A stretch of DNA of 64,000 nucleotides from NCBI GenBank assembly GCA_039821125.1, contig JBCBOR010000018.1, positions 1,160 to 65,159 on the forward strand. The letters are read 5' to 3'. Position numbers and translations under genes: made by a program. The notes beneath the pieces were generated by a model. The model did no database searches and was not told the DNA's origin. It worked only from the letters and a program-made list of their open reading frames with translations. Shown here one piece after another: positions 5,063 through 53,253 of this stretch. Source of the stretch: Pseudomonadota bacterium. GTDB taxonomy: Bacteria > Pseudomonadota > Alphaproteobacteria > Rhodobacterales > Rhodobacteraceae. Each line of letters begins with the position of its first letter. Position 1 is the stretch's first letter.

Positions 5063-5506
5063 ATGCTGATTGCAAGACGCTATCTTATCGGGGCCGTTCT
5101 CTCGTCCCTGGCCATCGGCGGTGCGCTGGCGCTCGACTACATCGGACCTGCGGGCAATCCCGCTCCGCTGGTGGTGCAGTTCACCCGCGGCACTGCCCTG
5201 GCACAAGGCGAGGCCGCGCGGGTTTCGGCCTTTGTCGGGGAGCATGTCGCCGAGCCGTCTTTGCGCTTTCATGTGCTTGGTCATACCGGAGACCGCGGCG
5301 ATGCGGATGCCAACCTGGCGCTCTCGCAGGACCGCGCGCAGGCCGTGGCCGATCTTCTCAAAGAGGCGGGTCTGGATGAGGCACAGCTTCTCTCTGTCCA
5401 AGGCATCGGTTCGGCGAGGCCGCTAGCAGCAGGGCCGGAAGAAAGCGATGGAGCCTTGCAACGCCGGATGGCGCGCGTTGTCGTAACCCCCGTGGTTCGC
5501 AAATGA
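5063..5506 (+). CDS. Small membrane-anchored OmpA/MotB-type peptidoglycan-binding protein
   Basis: N-terminal hydrophobic helix followed by the OmpA-like block LGHTGDRGDADANLALSQDRAQAVADLL...GIGSARP...RRMARVVV. Confidence 0.8.
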   Translation: MLIARRYLIGAVLSSLAIGGALALDYIGPAGNPAPLVVQFTRGTALAQGEAARVSAFVGEHVAEPSLRFHVLGHTGDRGDADANLALSQDRAQAVADLLKEAGLDEAQLLSVQGIGSARPLAAGPEESDGALQRRMARVVVTPVVRK

Positions 5507-6162
5507 GGTCGGCTCGTCTGATCGGTCCGGCCTTGGCCGCGATTGTGGCGAGCGCCCTTGCTGCGGCGTTCTTCGAAGTGGCCCGGATGCCGATCCTGTT
5601 TCCGTGGTCGACCGTCATTCTTCCTGCGCTGCTGACAGGGCTGCTGGCTCTTGGTCTTTCACTCATGTTGCCCCCTGGTCTGTTCTTCACGCGGGCTGAG
5701 CGGATGCGCGTCGATCTCTACACGGCAACAGGGCTGTCGGGGGCAAACTCGGAACGCCTTATCTCGACTGTCCAGCAGGCCGAGGGTTTTGCGCGGCGAT
5801 TGCGAGAGGCTTCCCCCGAAATGCGCGAGGATGCGGCGGGTGTAGCCATCGCTGCGGCGGAAGACCTTGAGGAGCTTGCGGCGCGCGTCACGGCAGAGCC
5901 GGCGACCGTTGGCTCGGCCAGTGCACTGATCACGAGGGCGCGGCTCGTGGTCGAGGCGGTCGAGAACTTCGTTGAATACAAACAGGATACCGGCGCGCGG
6001 GAGACCGAAGTCGATCAGGCCCGTGCACGCATCATGGACAGCCTGGCACAAATGTCCGAGGCGACCGATGCCGTCCATGTCCGGCAGGCTCAGCGCCGAC
6101 TTACCGATCTTGAAGTGGCAACCGATGTTGCCGACGATCTTTTTGGGAGACCCCAGCAATGA
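5503..6162 (+). CDS. Hypothetical inner-membrane protein with two N-terminal TM helices and an all-helical tail (XpaC/TelA-like architecture)
   Basis: ATGA overlap with the upstream gene. Two hydrophobic helices followed by a ~150-aa Ala/Glu/Arg-rich helical region. Collinear with the 50158..50754 protein (for example FVEYKQDTGARETEVDQ...LTDLEVATDV versus YVDLDKRASGENRDRVDA...FMALEVQVEV). Confidence 0.6.
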   Translation: MRSARLIGPALAAIVASALAAAFFEVARMPILFPWSTVILPALLTGLLALGLSLMLPPGLFFTRAERMRVDLYTATGLSGANSERLISTVQQAEGFARRLREASPEMREDAAGVAIAAAEDLEELAARVTAEPATVGSASALITRARLVVEAVENFVEYKQDTGARETEVDQARARIMDSLAQMSEATDAVHVRQAQRRLTDLEVATDVADDLFGRPQQ

Positions 6163-7835
6163 TTGCACGCATGGCTCTTGCTCTTTCGATTTCCTTTGCC
6201 GTGGGCAGTCCCGTCATGGCCCAGGCCCCCGGGGCTCCCATGGCGGAAATCGTGACCGAAGGCGTGCGCGATTGCTCGCCCGCAGACGTGCTTGAAATGC
6301 CACTGATCGCTTGGGGTGCCGATGCGGTCACGATCCACGCCAACGGCGGCGGCCTCGAGCCTAGTGGGGGCGAACTGAGCGATCGGGGCGCCTCGCTGTC
6401 GCTGTCTGTCGTCGACGATTTCGCCCAACAGGTGCGCAGCTATCTGACTTGCGAAAGTCCGTTCCTGCGGGGAACGCTGGGGATGCTCACCGCCGCCGCA
6501 CCGGTGACCGAGGCTGACCCGCGTACAGAGCAGGTGGTGATCTACAAGCACAGCTGGTCTGCGGGCGATGGCATTGTCGGCGGTCCGGACGTAAAATCGG
6601 TGAAGGATCTTGCCGGGCGCAAGATCGCGATCCAGGCCTATGGTCCGCACGTCGATTTCGTAGGCAGGGTGCTGGCGGACAGCGGTGTCTCGATGCGCGA
6701 TGTCGAGATTGTCTGGGCCGGTTCGCTGACCGGCGATGGTGACGATACGCCCGCCGCGATCCTGGCGCGCGGAGAAGCCGATGCCGCCGCAGTAATCCTG
6801 CCAGACGCGCGCCTCTTGACCAATGGCGGCACTGTGGGAACAGGTGCGGAGGGATCGGTCAAGGGCGCCGAGATCATCTTCTCGACCATGGAGGCAACCG
6901 CTGTGATCGGCGACTACATCGCCGTGCGAGCCGATGTCTTCGAGGCCGATGAGGAGCGTGTCCGATCGATCGTCGCGGCTCTGTTCGCAGCAGAGGAGAA
7001 GGTTCGCCGCTTTATGGCGGAGGATGGCTCGCCAGAGCAGCAGAAACTCGCGGCGACCATGGCCGATGTTCTGCTTGGCGGGCTTCCGGCGGAGGAGGGC
7101 GTGTTCCTCTGGCGTGATGCCATCACCGATGGCTGGTCGGGCAACGCGACCCATTTTTCGGACCCGAAGGATCCGCGCCGGTTTGAGATCCTGCTTGAGG
7201 AGGTCTCCGGCGCGTTGATTGGCGCGCGTATGATCGAACGGCCCTACAAGCTGGCTCATGCGGAATGGGACTATACCGCGCTGGCAGAGGGGTTGAGCGA
7301 TGTGTCGGACCGGGCCATCGCGGCATTCGATCCAAAGGCGGCCGCTGCGGCGGTGAACCGTTTGCGCCGCACCGGGCGCCTTGATGCGAATACAAAGATC
7401 GACTTCAAGGTCTATTTCGAGCCTGACACCACCGATTTCCCGGCAGCGCTTTATGCTGAGGATTTTGACGAGATCGTCCGCCTCGCGGCGACCTATGGCG
7501 GGGCGATCATCACGGTCGAAGGGCACGCAGACCCGCTGCACTATCTGCGGCGCGAGAAGGATGGCGCGCCCTCGAAGGAACTGCGGGCGATCCGGACATC
7601 GGCTCGAAATCTCTCGTTCAGCCGGGCACAATCCGTTCTTTCCGCGCTCAGCGACTATGCAGGTGGGCAGGGTATTGCGATCAACACCGACCAGTTCACT
7701 CTGGATGGGGTCGGGATCGATCAGCCGGCGTTCAACCCGCCGAAAACCGCCGAGGAGTGGCGCCAGAACATGCGCGTTGTCTTCCGCATCCTGACCACGC
7801 AGGCCGAGGCTACCACCTTCGCACCGCTGGATTGA
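6159..7835 (+). CDS. Exported periplasmic-binding-protein-fold domain fused to a C-terminal OmpA-type peptidoglycan-binding domain
   Basis: Signal peptide MIARMALALSISFAVGSPVMAQA. ~400 aa with SBP-like alternation. C-terminal ITVEGHADPL...ARNLSFSRAQSVLSAL...GVGIDQPA...NMRVVFRI is OmpA-like. ATGA overlap with the upstream gene. Confidence 0.75.
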   Translation: MIARMALALSISFAVGSPVMAQAPGAPMAEIVTEGVRDCSPADVLEMPLIAWGADAVTIHANGGGLEPSGGELSDRGASLSLSVVDDFAQQVRSYLTCESPFLRGTLGMLTAAAPVTEADPRTEQVVIYKHSWSAGDGIVGGPDVKSVKDLAGRKIAIQAYGPHVDFVGRVLADSGVSMRDVEIVWAGSLTGDGDDTPAAILARGEADAAAVILPDARLLTNGGTVGTGAEGSVKGAEIIFSTMEATAVIGDYIAVRADVFEADEERVRSIVAALFAAEEKVRRFMAEDGSPEQQKLAATMADVLLGGLPAEEGVFLWRDAITDGWSGNATHFSDPKDPRRFEILLEEVSGALIGARMIERPYKLAHAEWDYTALAEGLSDVSDRAIAAFDPKAAAAAVNRLRRTGRLDANTKIDFKVYFEPDTTDFPAALYAEDFDEIVRLAATYGGAIITVEGHADPLHYLRREKDGAPSKELRAIRTSARNLSFSRAQSVLSALSDYAGGQGIAINTDQFTLDGVGIDQPAFNPPKTAEEWRQNMRVVFRILTTQAEATTFAPLD

Positions 7836-7845
7836 GGAGGGGACG

Positions 7846-8607
7846 ATGAAACGCATGCTCGTTCCCGTGCTGACGATTGTGATCATCGCCGCAGCCATTT
7901 ACTGGGATCAAGCGACGTACACACCGCCCGGTGATGACGTCACTGCGATCGACACGGCAACACTCGCGCCGGATTGGGGTGCGATCTCTTCGTGGCCACC
8001 TGTCGATGGAATCGGGGTGGAGCCTGCGAGCGCCGAGGAAAATCCCGATCCTTGGCAACTGACAACGCTGATCCTGCTCGATGACAGTGCATCCATGAAC
8101 ACCCGGATGGAGGCCGCCAAACAGGCGGTGATCGAAGCGGTTGGACAACTCGCCCCCGAGAGCCGGGTCGGCATCGTTGCGCTCAATGCCGGGATTGTAT
8201 TGCCGGTCACGCGCGCCGGTGATGCGGCGCGCAGCCTTCCGGCGCAACTCGCGCCGATTAAACCTTCAGGCGCCACACCGTTGGGCGCGCGGCTGTCCGA
8301 GGCGATGGGCATCCTGGCGGCGGAGGCACGCCAGAGCCGCGGCTTCGGCGTCTACCGCATTCTGGTTACGACTGATGGCGCCGCCAGTGACGGAAACCGG
8401 ATGAACAATGCGGTGGCGGAAATCCTGTCGACCACACCGATCGAACTCGCAACCATCGGGGTCGGTATTGGCGAGGGCCACGCACTCAACGTGCCAGGAT
8501 ACACCAGCTATGTCAGCGTCAGCAGTGTCGATGATCTGGCCAGTGCGCTAACGGCAGCGGCGGCTGAGCAGACCGTGTTCCAACCCATCACGCAGTTCGA
8601 GGAATAG
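7846..8607 (+). CDS. Membrane-anchored von Willebrand factor A (vWA) domain protein
   Basis: N-terminal TM helix. MIDAS elements LLDDSASM, GATPLG and LVTTDGAASDG. Confidence 0.85.
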   Translation: MKRMLVPVLTIVIIAAAIYWDQATYTPPGDDVTAIDTATLAPDWGAISSWPPVDGIGVEPASAEENPDPWQLTTLILLDDSASMNTRMEAAKQAVIEAVGQLAPESRVGIVALNAGIVLPVTRAGDAARSLPAQLAPIKPSGATPLGARLSEAMGILAAEARQSRGFGVYRILVTTDGAASDGNRMNNAVAEILSTTPIELATIGVGIGEGHALNVPGYTSYVSVSSVDDLASALTAAAAEQTVFQPITQFEE

Positions 8608-8611
8608 GCGC

Positions 8612-9214
8612 ATGGGCCGCGAACTGTTGAAGTGGTCGGAGTGGTCACCGGGTCTCGACACTGACGGGATGACCTTGCGCGACGCGATGGCGACCATGCC
8701 GCGCTCGGATCCCGACGATGTGCCGGAAATTGTGCGCAAGTACGAGAACCCGGAGAGCCCGGATCGATTGCCGGGCGCGATTTCCCTCGACCGTCACGAC
8801 TGTCTGCACACCATTCTCGGCCGCGGCCTTCATGTGCAGGACGAGGCCTTCATCATCGGCGTGACCATGGGCTCGGCCAGTGACATCACCTCTGACATCG
8901 TCGAGGAGTTCATCCGCATCTCGACGACAGATTACCCGGAGGCGTGGCGGTTCCAGCCTGAGCACATCGCGTCCTACCGACTTGGGGTCGGGTTTGCCGA
9001 AGACATGCTGGCGAACACGGACCTGCATTTCACGCCGTGGGAGGAGCCGCCGCTGTTCGATACAACGGTCGGTGAGATACGCCGTGACCTCGGATTGGTG
9101 AAGGCAGAGATGCGTGCCTACTTCCGTGCAGAGGAGATCCTCGTCCCCGGCACCCGCGCCACCCGTCGGCTGGACAACAGCGCTCGCCGCCCGGATCAGG
9201 CGATGAAGCCGTAG
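8612..9214 (+). CDS. Hypothetical soluble protein with a Coq4-like HDxxH-x11-E metal-binding motif
   Basis: RHDCLHTILGRGLHVQDEAF has the spacing H-D-x2-H-x3-G-x7-E that I recall for the Coq4 family. Starts 4 nt after the vWA gene stop. Confidence 0.55.
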   Translation: MGRELLKWSEWSPGLDTDGMTLRDAMATMPRSDPDDVPEIVRKYENPESPDRLPGAISLDRHDCLHTILGRGLHVQDEAFIIGVTMGSASDITSDIVEEFIRISTTDYPEAWRFQPEHIASYRLGVGFAEDMLANTDLHFTPWEEPPLFDTTVGEIRRDLGLVKAEMRAYFRAEEILVPGTRATRRLDNSARRPDQAMKP

Positions 9215-9238: not shown

Positions 9239-10021
9239 TCAGCCTACGAAGGCTTTCTCGACCGCGTAGTCACCGGGGGCAGAGTTCGATCCTTCGCTGA
9301 ACCCGCGCGCGTCCAGAAGGGCCTTCATGTCCATGTTGAGACCGATTGAACCACAGATCATCAGACGATCGGTCTCCGGCGACAGCGGCCGGGTGTCGAA
9401 GTGTGCTGTCACACGATCTGCTTCAAACCACTCGGTAATCCTGCCGGTGTGCGGGCTGTCGTCACGTGTGGTTGTGGGCAGATACCGTAACCGCGCTGCG
9501 TGCTCGCCGACCAGCGGATCATCCGGAAGCGCCGCGACAAGCTGCGCGCCATAGGTCAACTCTTCCCGTTTTCTGGACGTGTGACTGAGATAGATTTCAT
9601 CATAGCGCTCGAACGTCTCCGGATCGCGGATGAGCGACGCGAAGGGCGCGATCCCCGTACCTGTCGCGACAAGAAACAGCCGTTTGCCCGGTCGAAGCGC
9701 ATCGTGCACCAGAGTGCCGACAGGTTTCGGCCGCAGGATCACCTGATCGCCGGGCTGTATGTGCTGAAGCCGCGAAGTGAGCGGGCCGTCAGGGACTTTG
9801 ATCGAATAGAACTCGAGTTCGTCATCCCAGGACGGTGAGGCGATCGAGTAGGCCCGCAGCAATGGCCTCCCGTTCTCGCCCATCAAGCCGATCATCACGA
9901 ACTCGCCCGAGCGGAACCTCAGCGACCTCGGCCGCGTCAGCCGGAACGAAAACAGCCGATCGGTATAGTGCGTGACCGAGGAGACTGTTTGTGTGTCGGG
10001 CAGGGTGACGGGCGCGTTCAT
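9239..10021 (-). CDS. fpr: Ferredoxin-NADP+ reductase (bacterial Fpr type)
   Basis: HYTDRLFSFRLTRP..RFRSGEFVMIGL (FAD domain) and LVATGTGIAPFASL (NAD(P) domain). Start set at ATG 10021 (MNAPV), which forms an ATGA overlap with the DUF934 stop. Confidence 0.9.
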   Translation of the reverse strand: MNAPVTLPDTQTVSSVTHYTDRLFSFRLTRPRSLRFRSGEFVMIGLMGENGRPLLRAYSIASPSWDDELEFYSIKVPDGPLTSRLQHIQPGDQVILRPKPVGTLVHDALRPGKRLFLVATGTGIAPFASLIRDPETFERYDEIYLSHTSRKREELTYGAQLVAALPDDPLVGEHAARLRYLPTTTRDDSPHTGRITEWFEADRVTAHFDTRPLSPETDRLMICGSIGLNMDMKALLDARGFSEGSNSAPGDYAVEKAFVG

Positions 10022-10434
10022 GGCCGCACCTCGCCACCGAAGACGCGCGACTGGTAGCCGGCGGCCATCGGAACCGACACCCACTGATGCTCGGGGTTGC
10101 GGGCGGCCTGCTCATCAGTGATCTCGATGTCGGTGAAGCCCGACCGCAGGGCGGCACGGAACTGATCGACCAACACGTGGCCGCGCGCCCGGATGTGCCC
10201 GGTGAAGCCCAGCCCGCGCAACTGCGCCGCTTGCGAGAACCCGCGCCCATCGGCGCTGGACCCGAACGGCACCACGATCAGCTTCAGTGTGTCGAAATGC
10301 GGCAAAGCAGCTTCGGGCGCGGCATCGACCGGCAGCAGGACTCCAGCGCCGCCCTCGTACTCGTCGATGGTCGGCAGGGCTATGTCGGCCCATGCATCCT
10401 TGGCGAAGCCTGTCGGTGTAATGACCTGGCTCAT
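10018..10434 (-). CDS. DUF934-family protein associated with sulfite reductase
   Basis: ~138 aa starting MSQVITPTGF, with FSSADGRGFSQA..LR..GFTG.IRA.G motifs typical of DUF934 next to cysI/cysH. ATGA overlaps at both ends. Confidence 0.75.
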   Translation of the reverse strand: MSQVITPTGFAKDAWADIALPTIDEYEGGAGVLLPVDAAPEAALPHFDTLKLIVVPFGSSADGRGFSQAAQLRGLGFTGHIRARGHVLVDQFRAALRSGFTDIEITDEQAARNPEHQWVSVPMAAGYQSRVFGGEVRP

Positions 10435-11144
10435 CCGGCGATCCTTTCGATTGTTCCGTCTTCTCGGATGTGAATGCCGCACTCGTCGCGTGCCTCGCCG
10501 CGCCAGCGCCCGGCGCGCGCGTCCTCTCCGGTAGCAACCCGCGTCGTGCAGGGCGCGCACCCGATCGAGGGATAGCCCTGTGCGACCAGTGGGTGCCGCG
10601 GCAGATCGTGGGCGTCGAAATAGGCGATGGTGTCGGCGCTGCTCCACCCGGCGAGCGGGCTGATCTTCAGTCGTTCGGCATCATCGGTCTCGAACGCCTG
10701 GATACGGGCGCGGGCACGGGTCTGATAGCGTTTGCGTCCGGTCAGGACTGCATCGAACCCGGCCAGTGCTTTTTCCAGCGGCGCAACCTTGCGCAGCGCA
10801 CAGCACGCCTCGGTGTCGCGTTGGTGCAGTGTCCGGTCGGGGTCAGCGGCCTCGTCCGGACGCAGGATCCGCACATCCCGAAGGCCCAGATGCGCGCTTA
10901 GGTCCCGCTGATACTCCAGCGTCTCCCGAAACAAGAGCGCCGTGTCCAGCATCAGTACAGGCACCGAAGGGTCGGTCACCGACAGCATGTGCAGCAGCAC
11001 CGCCGCATCCGCGCCGAAAGATGACGTCATCGCAATCCGCCCCTCGTAACGATCCAGGGCGACGCCCAGGATCGCTTCAGCCGGAGCTGACCCGAACCGG
11101 GCCTCCAGCCGCCGGGCCGTGATCGACTCAGGCTGCGGCGACAT
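10431..11144 (-). CDS. cysH: Phosphoadenylyl-/adenylyl-sulfate reductase (thioredoxin-dependent; Fe-S type with CC...CxxC)
   Basis: SSFGADAAVLLHM, CC pair (EACCALRKV), CAPCT and C-terminal ECGIH. The start is ATG 11144 or 11156, and either overlaps the cysI 3' end. Confidence 0.9.
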   Translation of the reverse strand: MSPQPESITARRLEARFGSAPAEAILGVALDRYEGRIAMTSSFGADAAVLLHMLSVTDPSVPVLMLDTALLFRETLEYQRDLSAHLGLRDVRILRPDEAADPDRTLHQRDTEACCALRKVAPLEKALAGFDAVLTGRKRYQTRARARIQAFETDDAERLKISPLAGWSSADTIAYFDAHDLPRHPLVAQGYPSIGCAPCTTRVATGEDARAGRWRGEARDECGIHIREDGTIERIAG

Positions 11145-12780
11145 CGAGAGCTCCATAAAGCGCGTCCTTGAACGGTGCAGCACCCAGACGGCGATAGGTC
11201 TCGAGGAATGTCTCATCCCCGTGCATCCGCGTTGCCAGATAGGTATCGATGATCCGCTCGACGGCCGGCACGATCTCGTCATAGGCAAAGCCCGGCCCGG
11301 TACGCTCGCCCAGGGTCGCGGCCTCGGTCCCGTCGCCGCCCAGCGTGATCTGGTAGCTCTCTACCCCCGCCTTATCGAGGCCAAGGATACCGATATGCCC
11401 CACGTGGTGGTGACCACAGGCATTGATGCAGCCGCTGATCTTGATCTTCAGCGGGCCGATGTCGTGCTGGGCGTCGATGTCGGCGAACGTCTCCGAGATC
11501 TGCTGGGCAATCGGGATCGACCGGGCCGTGGCCAGTGCGCAGTAATCCATGCCGGGGCAGGCGATGATGTCCGAGATCAGCCCGGCATTCGCCGTCGCCA
11601 GCCCCGCATCGCGCAGCGCGGCATAGACCGCGGGCAGATCGGCCTGCGGCACATGCGGCAGGATCACGTTCTGCTCGTGGCTGATGCGCAGTTCGTCATA
11701 GCTGTAGCGCTCGGCCAGATCCGCCAGCACCCGCATCTGATCTGACGAGGCATCGCCGGGCGTCGCCCCGATGGCCTTAAGCGAAACCGTCACGATCACG
11801 TGGCCGTCGCGCTTGTGCGGCGCGGTGTTGGTGTCGGCGAACGCGCGCAATGCGGCAGGCAGGACCCGGTCCTTTAAGCGTGTTTTCCTGTACGTGGGTT
11901 CCGCGAAGCTTGCGGTGATCCGCGCGACCACATCCTTGGCCACATCCGGCAGCCGGCGCTGTTGCAGGGCGAAGTTCTCCTCGATCCGCGCCTTCAGCTC
12001 CTCAAGCCCGGTCTCGTGCACCAGGATCTTGATCCGCGCCTTGTATTTGTTGTCGCGCCGGCCCGAGAGATTGTACGTGCGCATGATCGCCTCGAGATAC
12101 GCCAGCAGATCGCGCTTCGGCAGGAACTCACGCACCACCTTGCCGATCATCGGGGTCCGGCCGAGCCCGCCACCGATCACGACCTGATAGCCGACCTCGC
12201 CGTCCTGCTCGCGCACGCGCAGGCCGATGTCGTGGAAACGGATGACCGCGCGGTCTTCCTCAGACGCCGTCACCGCCACCTTGAACTTGCGCGGCAGGTA
12301 GGCGAACTCCGGGTGATCGGTCGACCACTGCCGGATTAGCTCGGCGGTGATGCGCGGGTCCTCGACCTCGCCCGCCGCTGCGCCTGCAAAGTGATCCGCC
12401 GTCACGTTGCGGATGCAGTTGCCCGAGGTCTGGATCGCGTGCATCTCGACATCCGCCAGCGCGTCCAGCATGTCCGGCACATCAGCGAGCTTGGGCCAGT
12501 TGAACTGGATGTTCTGCCGCGTTGTGAAGTGGCCATAGCCTTTGTCCCACCGGTCGGCGATGTAGGCGAGCTGGCGCATCTGTGCCGAGTTCAGCGTGCC
12601 ATAGGGGATGGCGACCCGCAGCATGTAGGCGTGCAGTTGCAAGTACAGCCCGTTCATCAGGCGGATCGGCTTGAACTCGTCCTCGGTCAGCGAGCCATCG
12701 AGACGGCGTGCCACCTGGCCGCGGAACTCTTCAACGCGCGATCGGACAAAGGCTTCGTCGAAATCGCTGTATTTATACAT
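11128..12780 (-). CDS. cysI: Assimilatory sulfite reductase hemoprotein (siroheme/4Fe-4S)
   Basis: 550 aa. Cluster-binding cysteines ACPGMDYCALA and SGCINACGHHHVG. Duplicated nitrite/sulfite reductase ferredoxin-like halves. Confidence 0.92.
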   Translation of the reverse strand: MYKYSDFDEAFVRSRVEEFRGQVARRLDGSLTEDEFKPIRLMNGLYLQLHAYMLRVAIPYGTLNSAQMRQLAYIADRWDKGYGHFTTRQNIQFNWPKLADVPDMLDALADVEMHAIQTSGNCIRNVTADHFAGAAAGEVEDPRITAELIRQWSTDHPEFAYLPRKFKVAVTASEEDRAVIRFHDIGLRVREQDGEVGYQVVIGGGLGRTPMIGKVVREFLPKRDLLAYLEAIMRTYNLSGRRDNKYKARIKILVHETGLEELKARIEENFALQQRRLPDVAKDVVARITASFAEPTYRKTRLKDRVLPAALRAFADTNTAPHKRDGHVIVTVSLKAIGATPGDASSDQMRVLADLAERYSYDELRISHEQNVILPHVPQADLPAVYAALRDAGLATANAGLISDIIACPGMDYCALATARSIPIAQQISETFADIDAQHDIGPLKIKISGCINACGHHHVGHIGILGLDKAGVESYQITLGGDGTEAATLGERTGPGFAYDEIVPAVERIIDTYLATRMHGDETFLETYRRLGAAPFKDALYGALDVAAA

Positions 12781-48229: not shown

Positions 48230-48547
48230 TGGCTTTCTCCCTGCGAGAGCAGATGCGTTGAACACCGCCGAGCGTGTGGGCCCAGCGTGACAGTGTCAAC
48301 TCAACACAGGGGATCCGGGGCATTTGACGGGGATCGGTGTGCGAAAGTGTCCGCCGAGTTTGGATACGATTGTCTCCGGCGCACAGTCATGGAACCGCTC
48401 ACACAGGCCAATGAACCATCGCGTGCGAACCGCGTGCCGATATTGCCTTTAATCCGCCGCATCGAGACGCTTTGACGTAGCGCGAGCGGACGGGTGTGTG
48501 GCAGGATCGGCAGCCAGCAAGACCGTCGCAGAACAGGGGTTGAGCAG

Positions 48548-50158
48548 TTGAAGACGTTCCTTTTCGGCCTCGCCATCGTCGGCGCGCTTGTTGTCGGCGC
48601 GATCGCGATCCTTGGGAGCCAGGGCATCGGCGCGCGCACGCATCTCTCAATCGTCTCAGGCTCGGAGAACAAGGCTCTGGAACCGATTGTTCGGGATTGG
48701 GCAGACGCGAACAACATCGATGTCGCCATGACATATCTCGGGTCGGTCGATATCAGCCGGGAACTCGGGCTTGGCACCGAGACAGTCTACGATGCGGTCT
48801 GGCCCGCGCACTCGCTTTGGATCGAACTGGGCGATACGCAGAAGGTCGCCAAGCACCGCGAGTCGATCCTGCGGTCTCCCGTCGTACTGGGCCTGCGCAA
48901 ATCGATAGCCGAACGTCTCGGATGGGTCGGGCGCAACGATGTGACGCTGGAGGAGATCCAGTCGGCTGCAAAGGCCGGGGAGTTCCGCCTCTCAATGACC
49001 TCCGCCACCCAGTCCAATTCCGGGGCGTCGGCATTCTTCGGGTTTCTCTACGCGCTTGCAGGCGAGCCGGACGTGCTGACCTCGGCCCATCTCGGCGATG
49101 CCGCTGTGCGGGCCTCGGTTTCCGAACTGCTTGGCCTTGTCGACCGGTCCTCCGGATCCTCGGGTTGGCTCAAGGACTCGGTGGTCGAGAACCCTGTCGC
49201 CTTCGATGCGATGATGAACTACGAGGCACTGATCATCGAGGGCAATCAGGACCTCGTCCGCGTCGGGCAGGAACCGCTCTACGTGATCTACCCCGCCTCG
49301 GGCATGGCGGTGGCGGACAGCCCGCTCGCATATGTGTCCAAGGGCGATGTGGCGAAGGAGGAGGCGTTCCTGGCCCTTCAGACGCATCTGCTGTCCGATC
49401 CGGTCCAGCAGCAGCTGTTGGCGCTTGGTCGGCGGGCCGGGCTGATCGGCCTGGCAGGCGGGGGCTCGCGCGATGTCTGGAACCCCGACTGGGGCATCGA
49501 TCTCGACCGTCAGATCGCACCGATCCCGACCCCGGCCAGCGAGGTGATCCGCGAGGCGCTGACGCTCTACCAGACCGATCTGCGCAAGCCGTCACTGACC
49601 GTCTGGGTCCTGGACGTGTCCGGATCGATGGAGGGCGAGCCGCTCGACCAGCTCAAACAGGCCATGCGCCTGCTGCTCGACCCGGAAAGCGCTACACTGA
49701 ACCTGTTGCAACCCTCGTCACGCGACGTGACCATCGTGATCCCGTTCAACGGCAGGGTCGAGGACATCTGGAAGCTGGAGGGCAACGATCCCGCCAGACT
49801 GGCTGACCTCGACCGCAAGGTGCAGCGGTTGCAGGCGGGTGGCGGCACCGATCTTTACTATGCGCTGGGACAGGCGCTGGAGCAGCTGGAGGTCTACGCC
49901 AAGGCCGGCACGCTCTTTGATCACCTGCCCGCAATCATTGCGATGACCGATGGCGCATCGGACGAGGGCAACAAGGCGGCTCTGAGTTCGTACATCGAAA
50001 CCCTCAGCTTTGGACGCGACATCCCGATCCACTCGATCGCCTTCGGAAAAGCGGATGAAAAACAGCTGAAGGACCTGAGCGAGGCTTCGATCGGGCGACT
50101 TTTCAAGGCCAAAGACAATCTTGCAGGCGCGCTGCGCAAGGCCAAAGGCTACAACTGA
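48548..50158 (+). CDS. Membrane-anchored periplasmic-binding-protein-fold domain fused to a C-terminal vWA domain
   Basis: Track ORF is 48494..50158. I favour the TTG at 48548 (MKTFLFGLAIVGALVVG), preceded by AGGGG. The N-terminal half is SBP-like (LSMTSATQSNSGASAFFGF). The C-terminal half has MIDAS VLDVSGSM, GGGTDLY and AMTDGASDEG. Confidence 0.8.
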   Translation: MKTFLFGLAIVGALVVGAIAILGSQGIGARTHLSIVSGSENKALEPIVRDWADANNIDVAMTYLGSVDISRELGLGTETVYDAVWPAHSLWIELGDTQKVAKHRESILRSPVVLGLRKSIAERLGWVGRNDVTLEEIQSAAKAGEFRLSMTSATQSNSGASAFFGFLYALAGEPDVLTSAHLGDAAVRASVSELLGLVDRSSGSSGWLKDSVVENPVAFDAMMNYEALIIEGNQDLVRVGQEPLYVIYPASGMAVADSPLAYVSKGDVAKEEAFLALQTHLLSDPVQQQLLALGRRAGLIGLAGGGSRDVWNPDWGIDLDRQIAPIPTPASEVIREALTLYQTDLRKPSLTVWVLDVSGSMEGEPLDQLKQAMRLLLDPESATLNLLQPSSRDVTIVIPFNGRVEDIWKLEGNDPARLADLDRKVQRLQAGGGTDLYYALGQALEQLEVYAKAGTLFDHLPAIIAMTDGASDEGNKAALSSYIETLSFGRDIPIHSIAFGKADEKQLKDLSEASIGRLFKAKDNLAGALRKAKGYN

Positions 50159-50754
50159 TGCACCTGCCTGACGGTCAGCGCCAGATCGTGGCCGGGCTCG
50201 GCGCATCTGTGGCGTTTCTGTCGATATTCTTCGGGCTTGGGCTGGTCTGGTGGGCCGCGCTGATCGCAGGGTTCGCGGTTTATCTCGCGATCCTGCTGAT
50301 CGTCGAGCGCAAGACGCCTGAGACCGAGGAGATGGTTGCCGATGGGATCTCGCGGGCCGAATTGACGGGGGCGATCAACGCGATCACGGCCGCATCTTCA
50401 AAGATGCGCCAGTTGGCGACCGCGGCACGGGGCGACGATCGCGGCGAATTCCAGAAGATGGCGAAGCTGTTCGAGGCGATCCGCGCCCATCACATCAAGG
50501 ACCCGCGTGACTATCATCACACCCGCACCTTCATTCGCCACGATCTGCCTCGCATCGTCGACACGGCCGAGCGCTATGTCGATCTCGACAAAAGGGCGTC
50601 GGGCGAGAACCGTGACCGTGTGGATGCCCTGGGAGAACAGATACGCAGTTTCACCCCCGTGTTGGAGAAGATCGACCAGGCCTGCCTCGAGAACGATTTC
50701 ATGGCCCTGGAAGTTCAGGTCGAGGTGCTGGGCGAGCAACTGGGCAAACGGTGA
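50158..50754 (+). CDS. Two-TM helical protein, XpaC-like (5-bromo-4-chloroindolyl phosphate hydrolysis protein family architecture)
   Basis: TGATG overlap with the upstream gene. Two N-terminal TM helices followed by a ~140-aa helical domain. The family label rests on remembered architecture and is not verified. Confidence 0.65.
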   Translation: MHLPDGQRQIVAGLGASVAFLSIFFGLGLVWWAALIAGFAVYLAILLIVERKTPETEEMVADGISRAELTGAINAITAASSKMRQLATAARGDDRGEFQKMAKLFEAIRAHHIKDPRDYHHTRTFIRHDLPRIVDTAERYVDLDKRASGENRDRVDALGEQIRSFTPVLEKIDQACLENDFMALEVQVEVLGEQLGKR

Positions 50755-50787: not shown

Positions 50788-51879
50788 ATGAAGAAATCCG
50801 TCATCGGCCTTCTGATCCTGGGCGTCGTGGCCGCAGCTGCGGTGGCCGGCAGCATGGTCGACTGGTCTGGTCTGCAGCGGGCGGTGCCTGTCTCCCGCGA
50901 TCCGATCAATCTCTCGATTTTCTACGGCGGAGAGAAGCGTGCCCTGCTCGGCAACCCGAGGATCCAGGAGATCATCAAGGGCCGCTACAAGATCACGCTG
51001 GATGCGGTCAAGGCGGGCTCGGTCGAGATGGCGACGACCCTGGATACTACCGGCAAGGCGTGCATCTGGCCCTCGAACATGGTGGCTGTCGAACTGGCCC
51101 GCCAGTCGGGAAAACCGGTCAAGGGCGATGAGACAATCTTCAACTCGCCCATTGTGTTCTACGCCTGGGCCGATGTCGCCGACGCCTTGGCCACCAGGGA
51201 CGTGGTGCGGGAGGGGACGAACGGTCAGTTGACCGCAGATGTCTCGAAGATCGGTGCCCTGATCCGCGACGGCACGCGCTGGAAGGAGGATCTTGGTCTT
51301 AACGTCTACGGTCCCTTCAAGGTGTTCTCGACGCATCCGGCGAAGTCGAACTCGGGCAACATCTGGTCCGGCCTGCTGGCAACGGTGCTGAACGGCGGAA
51401 CCACACCGACCGAGGATGACCTGCCGGGCCTGTTGCCGAAGATCGAGGCCTATTTCGATGCGATGGGGCACATGGAGGCGTCCTCGGGCGATATCTTCGA
51501 GAATTTCCTGAAACAGGGCATGGGCGCCCGTCCGATCATCGTGGGCTATGAGAACCAGTTGATCGAGTTCCTGATCGAGAACGCGCAATACGCAGATCTG
51601 ATCCGCGACAAGATCCGGGTGATCTATCCCGAGCCGACGATCTTTGCCTCGCATCCCCTGATCTCGCTGACCGATGGATGCAAGCGGCTGGCCGAAGCCC
51701 TGCAGGATCCTGACGTACAGGAAATCGCATGGTCCCAGCACGGGTTCCGCACGGGCCTGCTGGGTGTTGAAAACGATCCCGCCGCGATCACCGTGGCGAC
51801 GCTTCCCGATCGCGTCGATCTGGTCATCCCAATGCCATCGGCGGCTGTGGTCGATGCGGTGATCGACACCGTGCGCTAA
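50788..51879 (+). CDS. Membrane-anchored/exported binding-protein-fold protein, paralogue of the N-terminal half of the 48548..50158 product
   Basis: Anchor MKKSVIGLLILGVVAAAAVAG. FSTHPAKSNSGNIWSGLLATVLNGG parallels LSMTSATQSNSGASAFFGFLYALAG in the upstream fusion protein. Confidence 0.7.
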   Translation: MKKSVIGLLILGVVAAAAVAGSMVDWSGLQRAVPVSRDPINLSIFYGGEKRALLGNPRIQEIIKGRYKITLDAVKAGSVEMATTLDTTGKACIWPSNMVAVELARQSGKPVKGDETIFNSPIVFYAWADVADALATRDVVREGTNGQLTADVSKIGALIRDGTRWKEDLGLNVYGPFKVFSTHPAKSNSGNIWSGLLATVLNGGTTPTEDDLPGLLPKIEAYFDAMGHMEASSGDIFENFLKQGMGARPIIVGYENQLIEFLIENAQYADLIRDKIRVIYPEPTIFASHPLISLTDGCKRLAEALQDPDVQEIAWSQHGFRTGLLGVENDPAAITVATLPDRVDLVIPMPSAAVVDAVIDTVR

Positions 51880-52037
51880 AACGTGCCGGATGATCTGTGT
51901 CGGGGCCTTTGAGAAGGACTTCGTATCCAACTCACGCGCATTTCAGAAGTGATCCGGTGCGCTTGTTCTGCGGCTCGCAAGTGTGCAGATTGAGGGCGTT
52001 TTTGCTCAGCCACGATCTGCCAGCATGTTGATTTATC

Positions 52038-52114
52038 TGGTCGGAGTGGCAGGATTTGAACCTGCGGCCCCTGCCTCCCGAAGACAGTGCTCTACCAAGC
52101 TGAGCTACACTCCG
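52038..52114 (-). tRNA. tRNA-Pro (anticodon CGG)
   Basis: The reverse complement folds as a 77-nt cloverleaf: acceptor CGGAGTG/CACTCCG, D arm GCTC-AGCTTGGTA-GAGC, anticodon arm CTGTC-TTCGGGA-GGCAG, T arm GCAGG-TTCAAAT-CCTGC, and an encoded CCA. Confidence 0.92.
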
Positions 52115-52211
52115 CCGACAAGACGCGTCGTATACTGCCGCCGGTCAGAATCCGCAAGGCAGATTTCCGGGCTTGATGGCGCGGCGCGGGCTGACTATGG
52201 TCCGCCGCGAT

Positions 52212-52287
52212 TGGGACGTAGCTCAATTGGTAGAGCACCGGTTTTTGGTACCGTAGGTTGGAGGTTCGAGTCCTCCCGTCCCAGCCA
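52212..52287 (+). tRNA. tRNA-Gln (anticodon UUG)
   Basis: Acceptor TGGGACG/CGTCCCA (U1-A72), D arm GCTC-AATTGGTA-GAGC, anticodon loop TTTTGGT, T arm GGAGG-TTCGAGT-CCTCC, and an encoded CCA. Confidence 0.88.
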
Positions 52288-52311
52288 AGCGCAAGACACC
52301 GCCAGCGACGA

Positions 52312-53253
52312 TCAAAATACCGCGTGGTCACCGCGATCCGGGGCCGTTTCGCCTGCGGCGAGCCGAGCGTAGAAGGCGGGCAGGGTGTCCTGACCATGCT
52401 CGGGCGTCGCCCTGGCATCGTAGCGACCCGTAGCTGGATCGAGCACCAGCATGGATTCCGTCGCATAGTACCGCCCGATGCGGGCCAGGTCGGCCTTTGC
52501 GCGCAGCGCGGGCGAGAGATAGCCGACCACGGACAGGATGCCAATGATCGCGGACAAGAGTGCGACGGGCACATGGCGATACCGCGGCGCGACCCCCAAC
52601 GCTTTTGCCAAGGCTGCGCCCTGCTCTTGCGGGGTAAGGGCAGGGCCTGGGCCGCCGATTGGCAGAACCCGGTTCCAGCGGGCCGGTTGCTCGAGGCAGC
52701 CCGCGATGTAATCTGCCAGATCGCCGTCCGAGATCGGTTTGCACGCCGTCAGACGTCCATCGCCGAACACCAGGAAGGATTTGCCCGCGCGAACCCGCTC
52801 GACCTGGCCTGACAAGGATTTGAAGAAGGCCGTCGGCCGCACGATTGAGTACCGCAGGCCAGAGGCGATCAGCGCGTCCTCGAAGGCGAGTTTGGCCCGT
52901 TGGAAGGCGAGCAATGGTTTCTGCACACAGATCGCCGAGAGCAGAACGATGTGCCCGACCGCCGCCGCTTTGGCTGCCGCGAGGATTTGCAGATGAGCAT
53001 CGTGGTCGATGGCCCAGGCGTCATCCGGCGCACCGGTACGGGAGGCGAGACAGGAGATGACGGCACCGTACGCGGCATCGCGAAAGACTGCATCGAGATC
53101 GGCGGTCTCGGTGACATCGCCTTGACGCACAGACGCGCCGGGGATCTGCGCCGGTCGGCGAGTGAAGCAGGTGGTCACGTGCCCCCGTGCCACCAACTCC
53201 GCAACCACGGCCCGGCCTATTGTGCCCGTCCCACCGAAGACGAGGACGCGCAT
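52312..53253 (-). CDS. NAD(P)H-binding NmrA/atypical-SDR-family protein
   Basis: N-terminal MRVLVFGGTGTIGRAVV Rossmann motif. 313 aa. Confidence 0.8.
   Translation of the reverse strand: MRVLVFGGTGTIGRAVVAELVARGHVTTCFTRRPAQIPGASVRQGDVTETADLDAVFRDAAYGAVISCLASRTGAPDDAWAIDHDAHLQILAAAKAAAVGHIVLLSAICVQKPLLAFQRAKLAFEDALIASGLRYSIVRPTAFFKSLSGQVERVRAGKSFLVFGDGRLTACKPISDGDLADYIAGCLEQPARWNRVLPIGGPGPALTPQEQGAALAKALGVAPRYRHVPVALLSAIIGILSVVGYLSPALRAKADLARIGRYYATESMLVLDPATGRYDARATPEHGQDTLPAFYARLAAGETAPDRGDHAVF

Follow-up and report, generated by a model that had tools for sequence, protein, structure and literature searches.

The proteins XpaC and TelA recur in the envelope-stress regulons of Gram-positive bacteria, and in the tolerance of daptomycin and nisin. 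In Bacillus subtilis, for example, the xpaC-yaaN(telA) pair belongs to the core sigma-W regulon (PMC3498285), and the xpaC genes of Enterococcus faecium and Lactococcus lactis are induced by LiaR and CesR (PMC10269926). The deletion of xpaC in E. faecium lowers the minimum inhibitory concentration of daptomycin 8-fold and redistributes the phospholipid microdomains, with a requirement for an intact telA (conference abstract, PMC6811118), and an xpaC-telA pair is also found in Listeria, where telA contributes to nisin and tellurite tolerance (PMC12791056). This regulation by sigma-W, LiaR, and CesR, like the daptomycin phenotype, is known only from the Firmicutes. The present analysis deals with a Gram-negative counterpart, in a stretch of 64,000 nucleotides (the window) from contig JBCBOR010000018.1 of a member of the Rhodobacteraceae (assembly GCA_039821125.1), which contains two gene cassettes, A (locus 1) and B (locus 2), each encoding a protein with two transmembrane helices (a 2TM protein). 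The open reading frames (ORFs) of the two 2TM proteins were verified on the + strand at positions 5503-6162 (219 amino acids, aa) and 50158-50754 (198 aa), and every gene of the two loci, five in the first and three in the second, lies on this same strand.

The likeness of this window to the XpaC/TelA pair of the Firmicutes includes distant relatives of cassette B that share an operon with TelA, whereas the TelA operon partner known from Bacillus, Listeria, and Enterococcus is absent from the window itself. Here, in the envelope of a Gram-negative bacterium, the XpaC-like proteins have periplasmic partners instead, of the vWA, binding-protein, and OmpA-like types. A second point of reference is provided by the FtsZl1/vWA/OmpA operons of Makarova and Koonin (2010), for which a role in membrane remodeling was proposed (PMC2875224). 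The window shares with these operons the membrane-associated vWA proteins with an intact metal-ion-dependent adhesion site (MIDAS) and the OmpA-family proteins, but neither of its cassettes has a tubulin-like gene, a GTPase, or a kinase. Anantharaman, Iyer, and Aravind are also said to have predicted, in Mol Biosyst in 2012, membrane sensory complexes of TelA and TerB that include PBP-II and OmpA domains, together with domains of lipid interaction such as Coq4, and the vWA protein TerY has reportedly been tied to the same theme. Cassette A resembles these complexes in its PBP-II, OmpA-like, and vWA parts and its possibly Coq4-like protein, but the window has neither TelA nor TerB, although no search aimed at TerB was made. 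Finally, the fusion protein of cassette B is a typical member of the “substrate-binding and VWA domain-containing protein” type, with an SBP_bac_11 domain followed by vWA and a length of approximately 535 aa, to which can now be added a constant pairing with an XpaC-like protein and a stand-alone paralogue of the substrate-binding protein (SBP) domain, in nine loci and four distant ones. A search of the literature found nothing under this product name and, for the XpaC family PF10112, a bare mention of the accession only.

The window appears to hold a single type of envelope module in two paralogous versions, both arranged around an XpaC-family hairpin in the inner membrane. This module would sense a ligand or a metal, span the envelope, and signal through the hairpin, a reading to which a probability of roughly 0.6 is assigned. 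The gene neighborhoods described below argue strongly for a functional link among the 2TM, vWA, and binding-protein parts, and this link is considered to be well founded.

The two 2TM proteins are, judging from the comparison of their profiles, remote homologues. Pairwise BLASTP gives no significant match between them (E=26), but the deep profiles of the two families align in hhalign with a probability of 97.6% (E 3.8e-12) over 166 collinear columns, and the shallow profiles align at 91.3% (E 9.5e-7), with a score of 48 in comparison with 10-21 for the reversed or column-shuffled controls. The soluble domains alone also align (96.0%, P 4.6e-9, 140 columns), scoring 57.9 against a maximum of 16.3 in reversed and column-shuffled controls, so that the signal of homology is not an artefact of the membrane helices. 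When the hidden Markov model (HMM) of the locus-1 family was run against all the ORFs of the window, the locus-2 protein was its sole other match (E 1.5e-7), and one metagenomic protein (P0095) matches both window proteins by plain BLASTP (1e-5 and 3e-5). A preliminary description of the window had aligned the two proteins by eye and had made its proposed link between the loci depend on a statistical alignment. That alignment proved significant in hhalign, with the deep-profile values given above, if not in BLASTP, and all three of the peptide pairs quoted in that description, including LTDLEVATDV / FMALEVQVEV, are aligned together by hhalign.

The locus-2 protein is, by its profile match, a regular member of PF10112 (XpaC, also named Halogen_Hydrol), which it matches over the full profile (positions 5-191 of 191) with E 8.2e-14 and 52.5 bits, well above the cut-off of 29.8. 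The locus-1 protein, which is related to this family as a remote homologue, has no direct Pfam match even at E<=10, but eight of the 41 aligned members of its family match PF10112 individually, the best of them with E 1.2e-19. On this evidence, the locus-1 protein represents a rare and divergent XpaC-like branch that lies outside the current Pfam model. Only nine close relatives were recovered for it in a word-indexed search, in comparison with 41 for the locus-2 protein, nearly all of them with PF10112, and 46 representatives were recovered when 1.84 billion proteins were searched exhaustively with the HMM of the locus-1 family.

Hydropathy and AlphaFold2 agree on a common plan for the two 2TM proteins, as the preliminary description had proposed, with two N-terminal transmembrane helices followed by approximately four long helices. 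The locus-1 model has a mean predicted local distance difference test (pLDDT) score of 73, with helices at residues 3-27, 35-55, 81-106, 109-131, 133-161, and 167-214, and the locus-2 model has a mean pLDDT of 83. Both proteins fit the build of XpaC, which is approximately 200 aa long and combines a membrane hairpin of two helices at the N-terminus with a helical domain at the C-terminus. Searches of the PDB with the sequence profiles of both families returned nothing meaningful. The possibility that XpaC is a membrane-anchored paralogue of TelA was also considered, and was dropped, given that the XpaC-like C-terminal domain aligns with TelA at less than 1% in hhalign.

Table 1. Genes of the two XpaC-like cassettes in the window, with the predicted character of their products (coordinates in nucleotides from the first position of the window).
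Gene	Coordinates	Strand	Predicted product
Cassette A gene 1	5063..5506	+	Small protein of 147 aa, OmpA-like (peptidoglycan-binding), with a signal or anchor sequence at its N-terminus
Cassette A gene 2	5503..6162	+	Divergent XpaC-like protein, 219 aa, transmembrane hairpin and cytoplasmic helical bundle
Cassette A gene 3	6159..7835	+	Secreted protein of 558 aa, an SsuA/NMT1-like periplasmic binding domain with an OmpA-like domain fused at the C-terminus
Cassette A gene 4	7846..8607	+	Membrane-anchored periplasmic vWA protein, 253 aa, MIDAS intact
Cassette A gene 5	8612..9214	+	Conserved 200-aa protein, no signal peptide, possibly Coq4-like, HDxxH-x11-E motif
Cassette B gene 1	48548..50158	+	Membrane-anchored SBP_bac_11-vWA fusion, 536 aa by the gene caller (ORF opens at 48494)
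Cassette B gene 2	50158..50754	+	XpaC-family protein, 198 aa, transmembrane hairpin and cytoplasmic helical bundle
Cassette B gene 3	50788..51879	+	Membrane-anchored or secreted stand-alone paralogue of the gene 1 binding domain, 363 aa

The genes in each cassette are tightly packed and translationally coupled through overlapping start and stop codons. In cassette A, there are ATGA overlaps at 5503 and 6159, the other junctions being gaps of 4-10 nucleotides, and in cassette B, the stop codon of the SBP-vWA gene overlaps the start of the XpaC-like gene in a TGATG at 50155-50160. The scans for promoters and terminators gave hits at chance level and were uninformative. The domains of the window proteins, called with Pfam and NCBIfam, agree with the fusion states proposed in the preliminary description, with vWA as a protein of its own and a binding domain joined to an OmpA-like C-terminus in locus 1, and an SBP_bac_11-vWA fusion in locus 2. 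The OmpA-like gene at 5063-5506, the fifth gene at 8612-9214, and the SBP paralogue at 50788-51879 are additions to that description.

In cassette A, the 147-aa protein matches Pfam OmpA (PF00691) with E 4.5e-11 and 43.4 bits, above the cut-off of 27.2, and has a hydrophobic segment at residues 6-27. In the 558-aa protein, the binding domain matches Pfam NMT1 (5.8e-5) and the NCBIfam family SsuA_fam (TIGR01728; 2.1e-10), and the profile search of the PDB recovered 3e4r (2.2e-6), deposited as a “Nitrate transport protein”, which is presumably an SsuA, together with 3uif (0.0055), which is named SsuA. The GHxD, NLSxxRA, and NxRV motifs are seen in the C-terminal sequence of this protein, which aligns with the neighboring OmpA protein in hhalign at P 0.009, and an orthologue from another locus (L033) reaches 26.6 bits (E 7.6e-6) against PF00691, just under the cut-off. 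The 253-aa protein, which has a hydrophobic segment at residues 1-23, matches both VWA_2 (3.2e-9) and VWA (3e-8) of Pfam above threshold, and the DxSxS, T, and D residues of its MIDAS are invariant in six orthologues.

In cassette B, the fusion protein has an N-terminal hydrophobic segment, and matches Pfam SBP_bac_11 (5.6e-9), VWA (4.4e-10), and VWA_3 (2.8e-10); its SBP_bac_11-type domain has no close solved relative. The 363-aa protein, which also has an N-terminal hydrophobic segment, has no Pfam match, but is related to the binding domain of the fusion by BLASTP (5e-6, 25% identity over 331 aa). The MIDAS is intact in both the vWA proteins of the window, and its D-x-S-x-S and Asp residues are invariant across the orthologues examined, including the distant ones, with variation only at the flanking positions. 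The vWA domains of the two loci share no more than a generic vWA similarity (E=0.011).

The five-gene order of cassette A is retained in loci whose 2TM proteins range from 69% down to 24% identity with that of the window. The carriers include metagenome-assembled genomes labeled Paracoccaceae, Pseudomonadota, and Chromatiales, with unrelated flanks, and the cassette was found in 11 distinct contexts. It is rare, being present in five of 185,579 species genomes when searched for with patterns from close relatives. The most conserved gene is that of the SBP-OmpA-like protein (55-86% identity), the fusion being present in every A-type locus recovered. This protein and the 200-aa protein (62-82%) are far more conserved than the vWA protein (38-68%), the small OmpA-like protein (36-67%), and the 2TM protein (24-69%). 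Wherever the sequence of an A-type locus covers the position directly 5' of the 2TM gene, the small OmpA-like gene is found there, and the gene of the 200-aa protein is likewise found in all the A-type loci long enough to include its position. Across the loci of both cassettes (L001-L017 and L026-L031), the XpaC-like proteins, at 24-72% identity, diverge much faster than the binding-protein components, at 55-86%.

In the B type, the SBP-vWA gene is located directly 5' of the XpaC-like gene in nine of nine loci, and the 363-aa gene is present in every locus with sequence at its position (eight of the nine), at 57-86% identity. Clustered at 90% identity, the SBP-vWA fusion itself accounts for at least 3024 clusters. 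Many of these are from cultured Rhodobacterales, and some bear the NCBI product name cited above. The fusion is common in this bacterial order, in Mameliella, Ruegeria, Actibacterium, and Rhodovulum, for example. More distant relatives, approximately 29% identical, were found on replicons of Variovorax, Sphaerotilus, Nonomuraea, and Deinococcus, in which the order is permuted relative to the window, with the SBP paralogue followed by TelA, the SBP-vWA protein, and a 2TM protein of approximately 210 aa. The TelA gene is present in three of these four loci (Variovorax, Sphaerotilus, and Nonomuraea; L019, L021, and L022), and absent in Deinococcus. The 2TM proteins of this distant group have no Pfam match, but jointly match the XpaC-like profile (94.3%, E 1e-7, 184 columns). 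With relatives in the Betaproteobacteria, Deinococcus, and Actinomycetota, the module of XpaC-like protein, SBP-vWA fusion, and SBP paralogue spans, as far as its sequences indicate, four phyla.

The preliminary description had further argued that the two loci share one domain vocabulary in different states of fusion, in the manner of a Rosetta stone, and that the pair represents an undescribed system. The first of these arguments holds in part. Both loci have proteins that match periplasmic binding-protein families, and neither fusion is peculiar to this genome, given the SBP-vWA clusters and the A-type loci described above. The binding domains themselves, however, belong to different families, NMT1/SsuA-like in one case and SBP_bac_11 in the other (hhalign 1.4%), and only the 2TM proteins are specifically related, so that the case is not a strict Rosetta stone. 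The comparison of the domains points to the convergent use of a domain type, and not to the fusion of orthologous parts. The second argument was overstated, given that the 2TM protein belongs to the XpaC family, the fusion already has an NCBI product name, and its relatives adjoin TelA. What does appear to be new is the rare and divergent XpaC-like branch with its five-gene cassette, the constancy of the three-gene cassette B, and the presence of both cassettes in one genome, 42 kb apart.

The 200-aa product of cassette A gene 5 belongs to a family in which the residues H62, D63, H66, and E78 are invariant in eight members, forming the motif HDxxH-x11-E, which is taken here to be the metal site of Coq4. 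The HDxxH...E motif is also present in fragments of the Coq4-family structures 3msq and 6e12, and a second, C-terminal block, (F/W)D..V.EIR..LG, which is collinear with the HDxxH block, is common to the 200-aa protein and both structures. The protein has no Pfam match or sequence match in the PDB, and HMMER finds no Coq4 in the six cassette-encoded members scanned. In a 38%-identical homologue, Coq4 (PF05019) is the sole Pfam match, with E=0.052 and 13.3 bits against a cut-off of 22.9. The hhalign comparison of the family with the 3msq and 6e12 fragments gives a score of 25.3 (P 0.003), in comparison with a maximum of 17.7 for the shuffled profiles. The balance of this evidence tips slightly toward a Coq4-like protein. 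The relatives of the 200-aa protein on a plasmid of Streptomycetaceae and in Acaryochloris and Nostoc are all annotated as hypothetical, and the plasmid homologue (L023:5980-6588) adjoins a gene for an AarF/UbiB-family kinase.

In the proposed module, the XpaC-like bundle and the 200-aa protein are likely to be cytoplasmic, as indicated by hydropathy and charge, and all the other parts are likely to be periplasmic. The binding-protein domains would be sensors of a ligand, and not components of transport, because they have no transporter partner and, in cassette B, are joined covalently to vWA. Genes for ABC permeases or ATPases are found neither in nor beside either cassette of the window, nor in the conserved cassettes of other genomes. 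The state of the ligand might then be read by, or presented to, the MIDAS of the vWA domain, and the resulting change would pass through the membrane anchors and the XpaC-like hairpin to the cytoplasmic bundle. The bundle, in turn, may act on the homeostasis of the membrane or envelope, via TelA in the relatives that carry it, and perhaps via the Coq4-like protein in cassette A, which would additionally be pinned to the peptidoglycan by its two OmpA-like domains. As the binding proteins of the two cassettes are from unrelated families, A and B probably sense different ligands.

A number of points weigh against this sensory module. TelA, alone among the partners of XpaC, is backed by genetic evidence, yet it is absent from the window, and searches by tblastn with three TelA proteins found no match either in the 64 kb of the window or in the alpha- and gammaproteobacterial loci L001-L018. 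The AlphaFold2 models of both 2TM proteins match only generic or designed helical bundles in the PDB by Foldseek, none of them at E<=0.001, so that the cytoplasmic domain offers no clue to function. The C-terminus of the window's own 558-aa protein reaches 21.4 bits (E 3.3e-4) against PF00691, below the cut-off of 27.2, and the binding domains of the two loci, besides their failure to align in hhalign, have no significant match by BLASTP. The assignment of the 200-aa protein to Coq4 is weak (P about 0.003), and the topology is a prediction from hydropathy and charge. The proposed ligands (sulfonate-like in cassette A, oxyanion-like in cassette B) are a guess from the names of the families.

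The main rival to a sensory module is a structural one, in which the OmpA-like, vWA, and binding-protein folds would form a scaffold or tether that bridges the inner membrane to the peptidoglycan, with the XpaC-like hairpin as its foot in the membrane, and the envelope would be stabilized or remodeled in consequence. The two OmpA-like domains of cassette A would suit such a tether, as would the vWA domain, a classic module of protein-protein adhesion, and the phenotype of the xpaC mutant, which concerns the architecture of the phospholipids (PMC6811118). One B-type cassette (L005) also has a Tubulin_2 gene and a PBP_like_2-OmpA fusion in its vicinity, which recalls the precedent of the FtsZl1/vWA/OmpA operons (PMC2875224). 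Cassette B, however, has no OmpA-like domain at all, and no tubulin-like gene adjoins either cassette of the window, or the cassettes of the other loci examined, while the conservation of the binding-protein folds, at 55-86%, suggests that a ligand pocket has been kept, all of which makes a purely structural role unlikely. The adjacency of the genes might also be of an ordinary kind, with the binding proteins serving as orphan receptors for transporters encoded elsewhere, and the likeness between the loci reflecting no more than common types of periplasmic domain. It is true that domains of the vWA, OmpA, and binding-protein types each occur very widely, and that the binding domains of the two loci are of different families, with no specific similarity. 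Even so, the sets of genes and their order are maintained across many genomes with unrelated flanks, in four phyla in the case of the B type. Translational coupling links the genes, at least 3024 clusters have the binding domain and vWA joined in a single polypeptide, and the homology of the 2TM proteins has been demonstrated. The conservation of the cassettes thus largely refutes this explanation, which is now highly improbable.

A role in stress resistance of the Ter/TelA type or in defense against phages, by contrast, would assign to the cassettes the protection of the cell from toxic anions, membrane-active toxins, or phages, with the XpaC-like and vWA proteins analogous to components of the TelA and TerY types. 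The relatives of cassette B that carry TelA in the operon favor such a role, as does the contribution of telA to nisin and tellurite tolerance in Listeria (PMC12791056), and some of the neighborhoods are also in keeping with it, given that the Variovorax copy is near flotillin and Wadjet genes on a plasmid, and that a TerC gene lies 3 kb from one A-type locus. In the window, however, PADLOC returned only weak matches of the MotB/ZorB type for the OmpA domain, and none for the other seven of the eight proteins. No TelA was found near the cassettes, and nothing pointed to ter genes, though TerB, TerC, and TerD were not searched for. The flanks are metabolic, with no defense islands, and tblastn of the XpaC-like protein of cassette B found no match for it in plasmids. 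Protection of this kind is less probable than the tether, and the sensory module with its XpaC-family hairpin is preferred over all of these alternatives.

A more specific version of the sensory module can be proposed for cassette A, which may be a distinct and rare envelope-spanning machine of five components. Its XpaC-like hairpin would couple the periplasmic sensing of the ligand to a Coq4-like protein of the cytoplasm, a binder of metal and of an isoprenoid or lipid. More broadly, the XpaC family would supply the conserved transmembrane component at the center of a large class of vWA/binding-protein sensors, in Gram-positive and Gram-negative bacteria alike. This version is put forward tentatively, as a possibility against which the odds are clearly weighted, and it would, if true, tie the sensing of the envelope to the chemistry of the membrane lipids or quinones. 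Independently of this version, the association of the XpaC fold with periplasmic vWA and binding-protein partners in Gram-negatives, and in four phyla, provides candidate interaction partners and ligands for XpaC, and the family is extended beyond the reach of Pfam detection by a rare branch with a five-gene cassette of its own. If the sensor model is true, these cassettes would represent a widespread type of envelope sensor, distinct from both the two-component systems and the transporters. A genetic approach is feasible, given how common the B-type cassette is in cultured marine Rhodobacterales.

The surroundings of the cassettes in other genomes are varied. In two distant loci, one of them alphaproteobacterial and metagenomic (L005:7813-9597) and the other from Sphaerotilus (L021:1563-3485), the B-type cassette has a gene for a PhoX-family phosphatase as its neighbor, with no such gene next to cassette B of the window. 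Given these neighbors, and that XpaC was named after a phenotype of phosphate-ester hydrolysis (of 5-bromo-4-chloro-3-indolyl phosphate, BCIP), a link to phosphate or other oxyanions is conceivable. In the same metagenomic locus, the Tubulin_2 (FtsZl1) gene and then the PBP_like_2-OmpA fusion gene are found at L005:1-2142, 4 kb 5' of the B-type cassette, and this fusion, which is part of a different system, has no BLASTP match to the SBP-OmpA-like protein of the window. On the Variovorax plasmid (L019), the cassette of TelA, SBP-vWA, and XpaC-like genes is located between a gene with a flotillin domain and a Wadjet (JetA) system. The TerC gene of the A-type locus L013 lies 5' of the cassette, on the opposite strand.

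In the window itself, the cassettes are flanked by genes of ordinary metabolism, including a TctA/TctB transporter, PrpF, ketopantoate hydroxymethyltransferase, a Rieske oxygenase, a nitrilase, a P450, and an NmrA-like reductase. Directly 3' of cassette A, on the - strand (9239-11288), are a gene similar to ferredoxin-NADP reductase and a gene with a PAPS-reductase domain, which is typical of sulfur assimilation. Given the SsuA-like domain of the cassette, this adjacency is mildly suggestive, but it is probably a coincidence, because the other A-type loci have different flanks. Just 3' of cassette B, there are two divergent tRNA genes, tRNA-Pro(cgg) at 52038-52114 (-) and tRNA-Gln(ttg) at 52212-52287 (+), and the long “ORF” that runs across both of these genes (51983-52372) is spurious. 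At the 5' end of the window, the ORF at 4-1869 contains TctA (residues 2-390) and TctB (470-601) of a tripartite tricarboxylate transporter, and resembles a fused TctA-TctB; its match to TctA begins at position 34 of the profile, so that the gene probably starts before the window.

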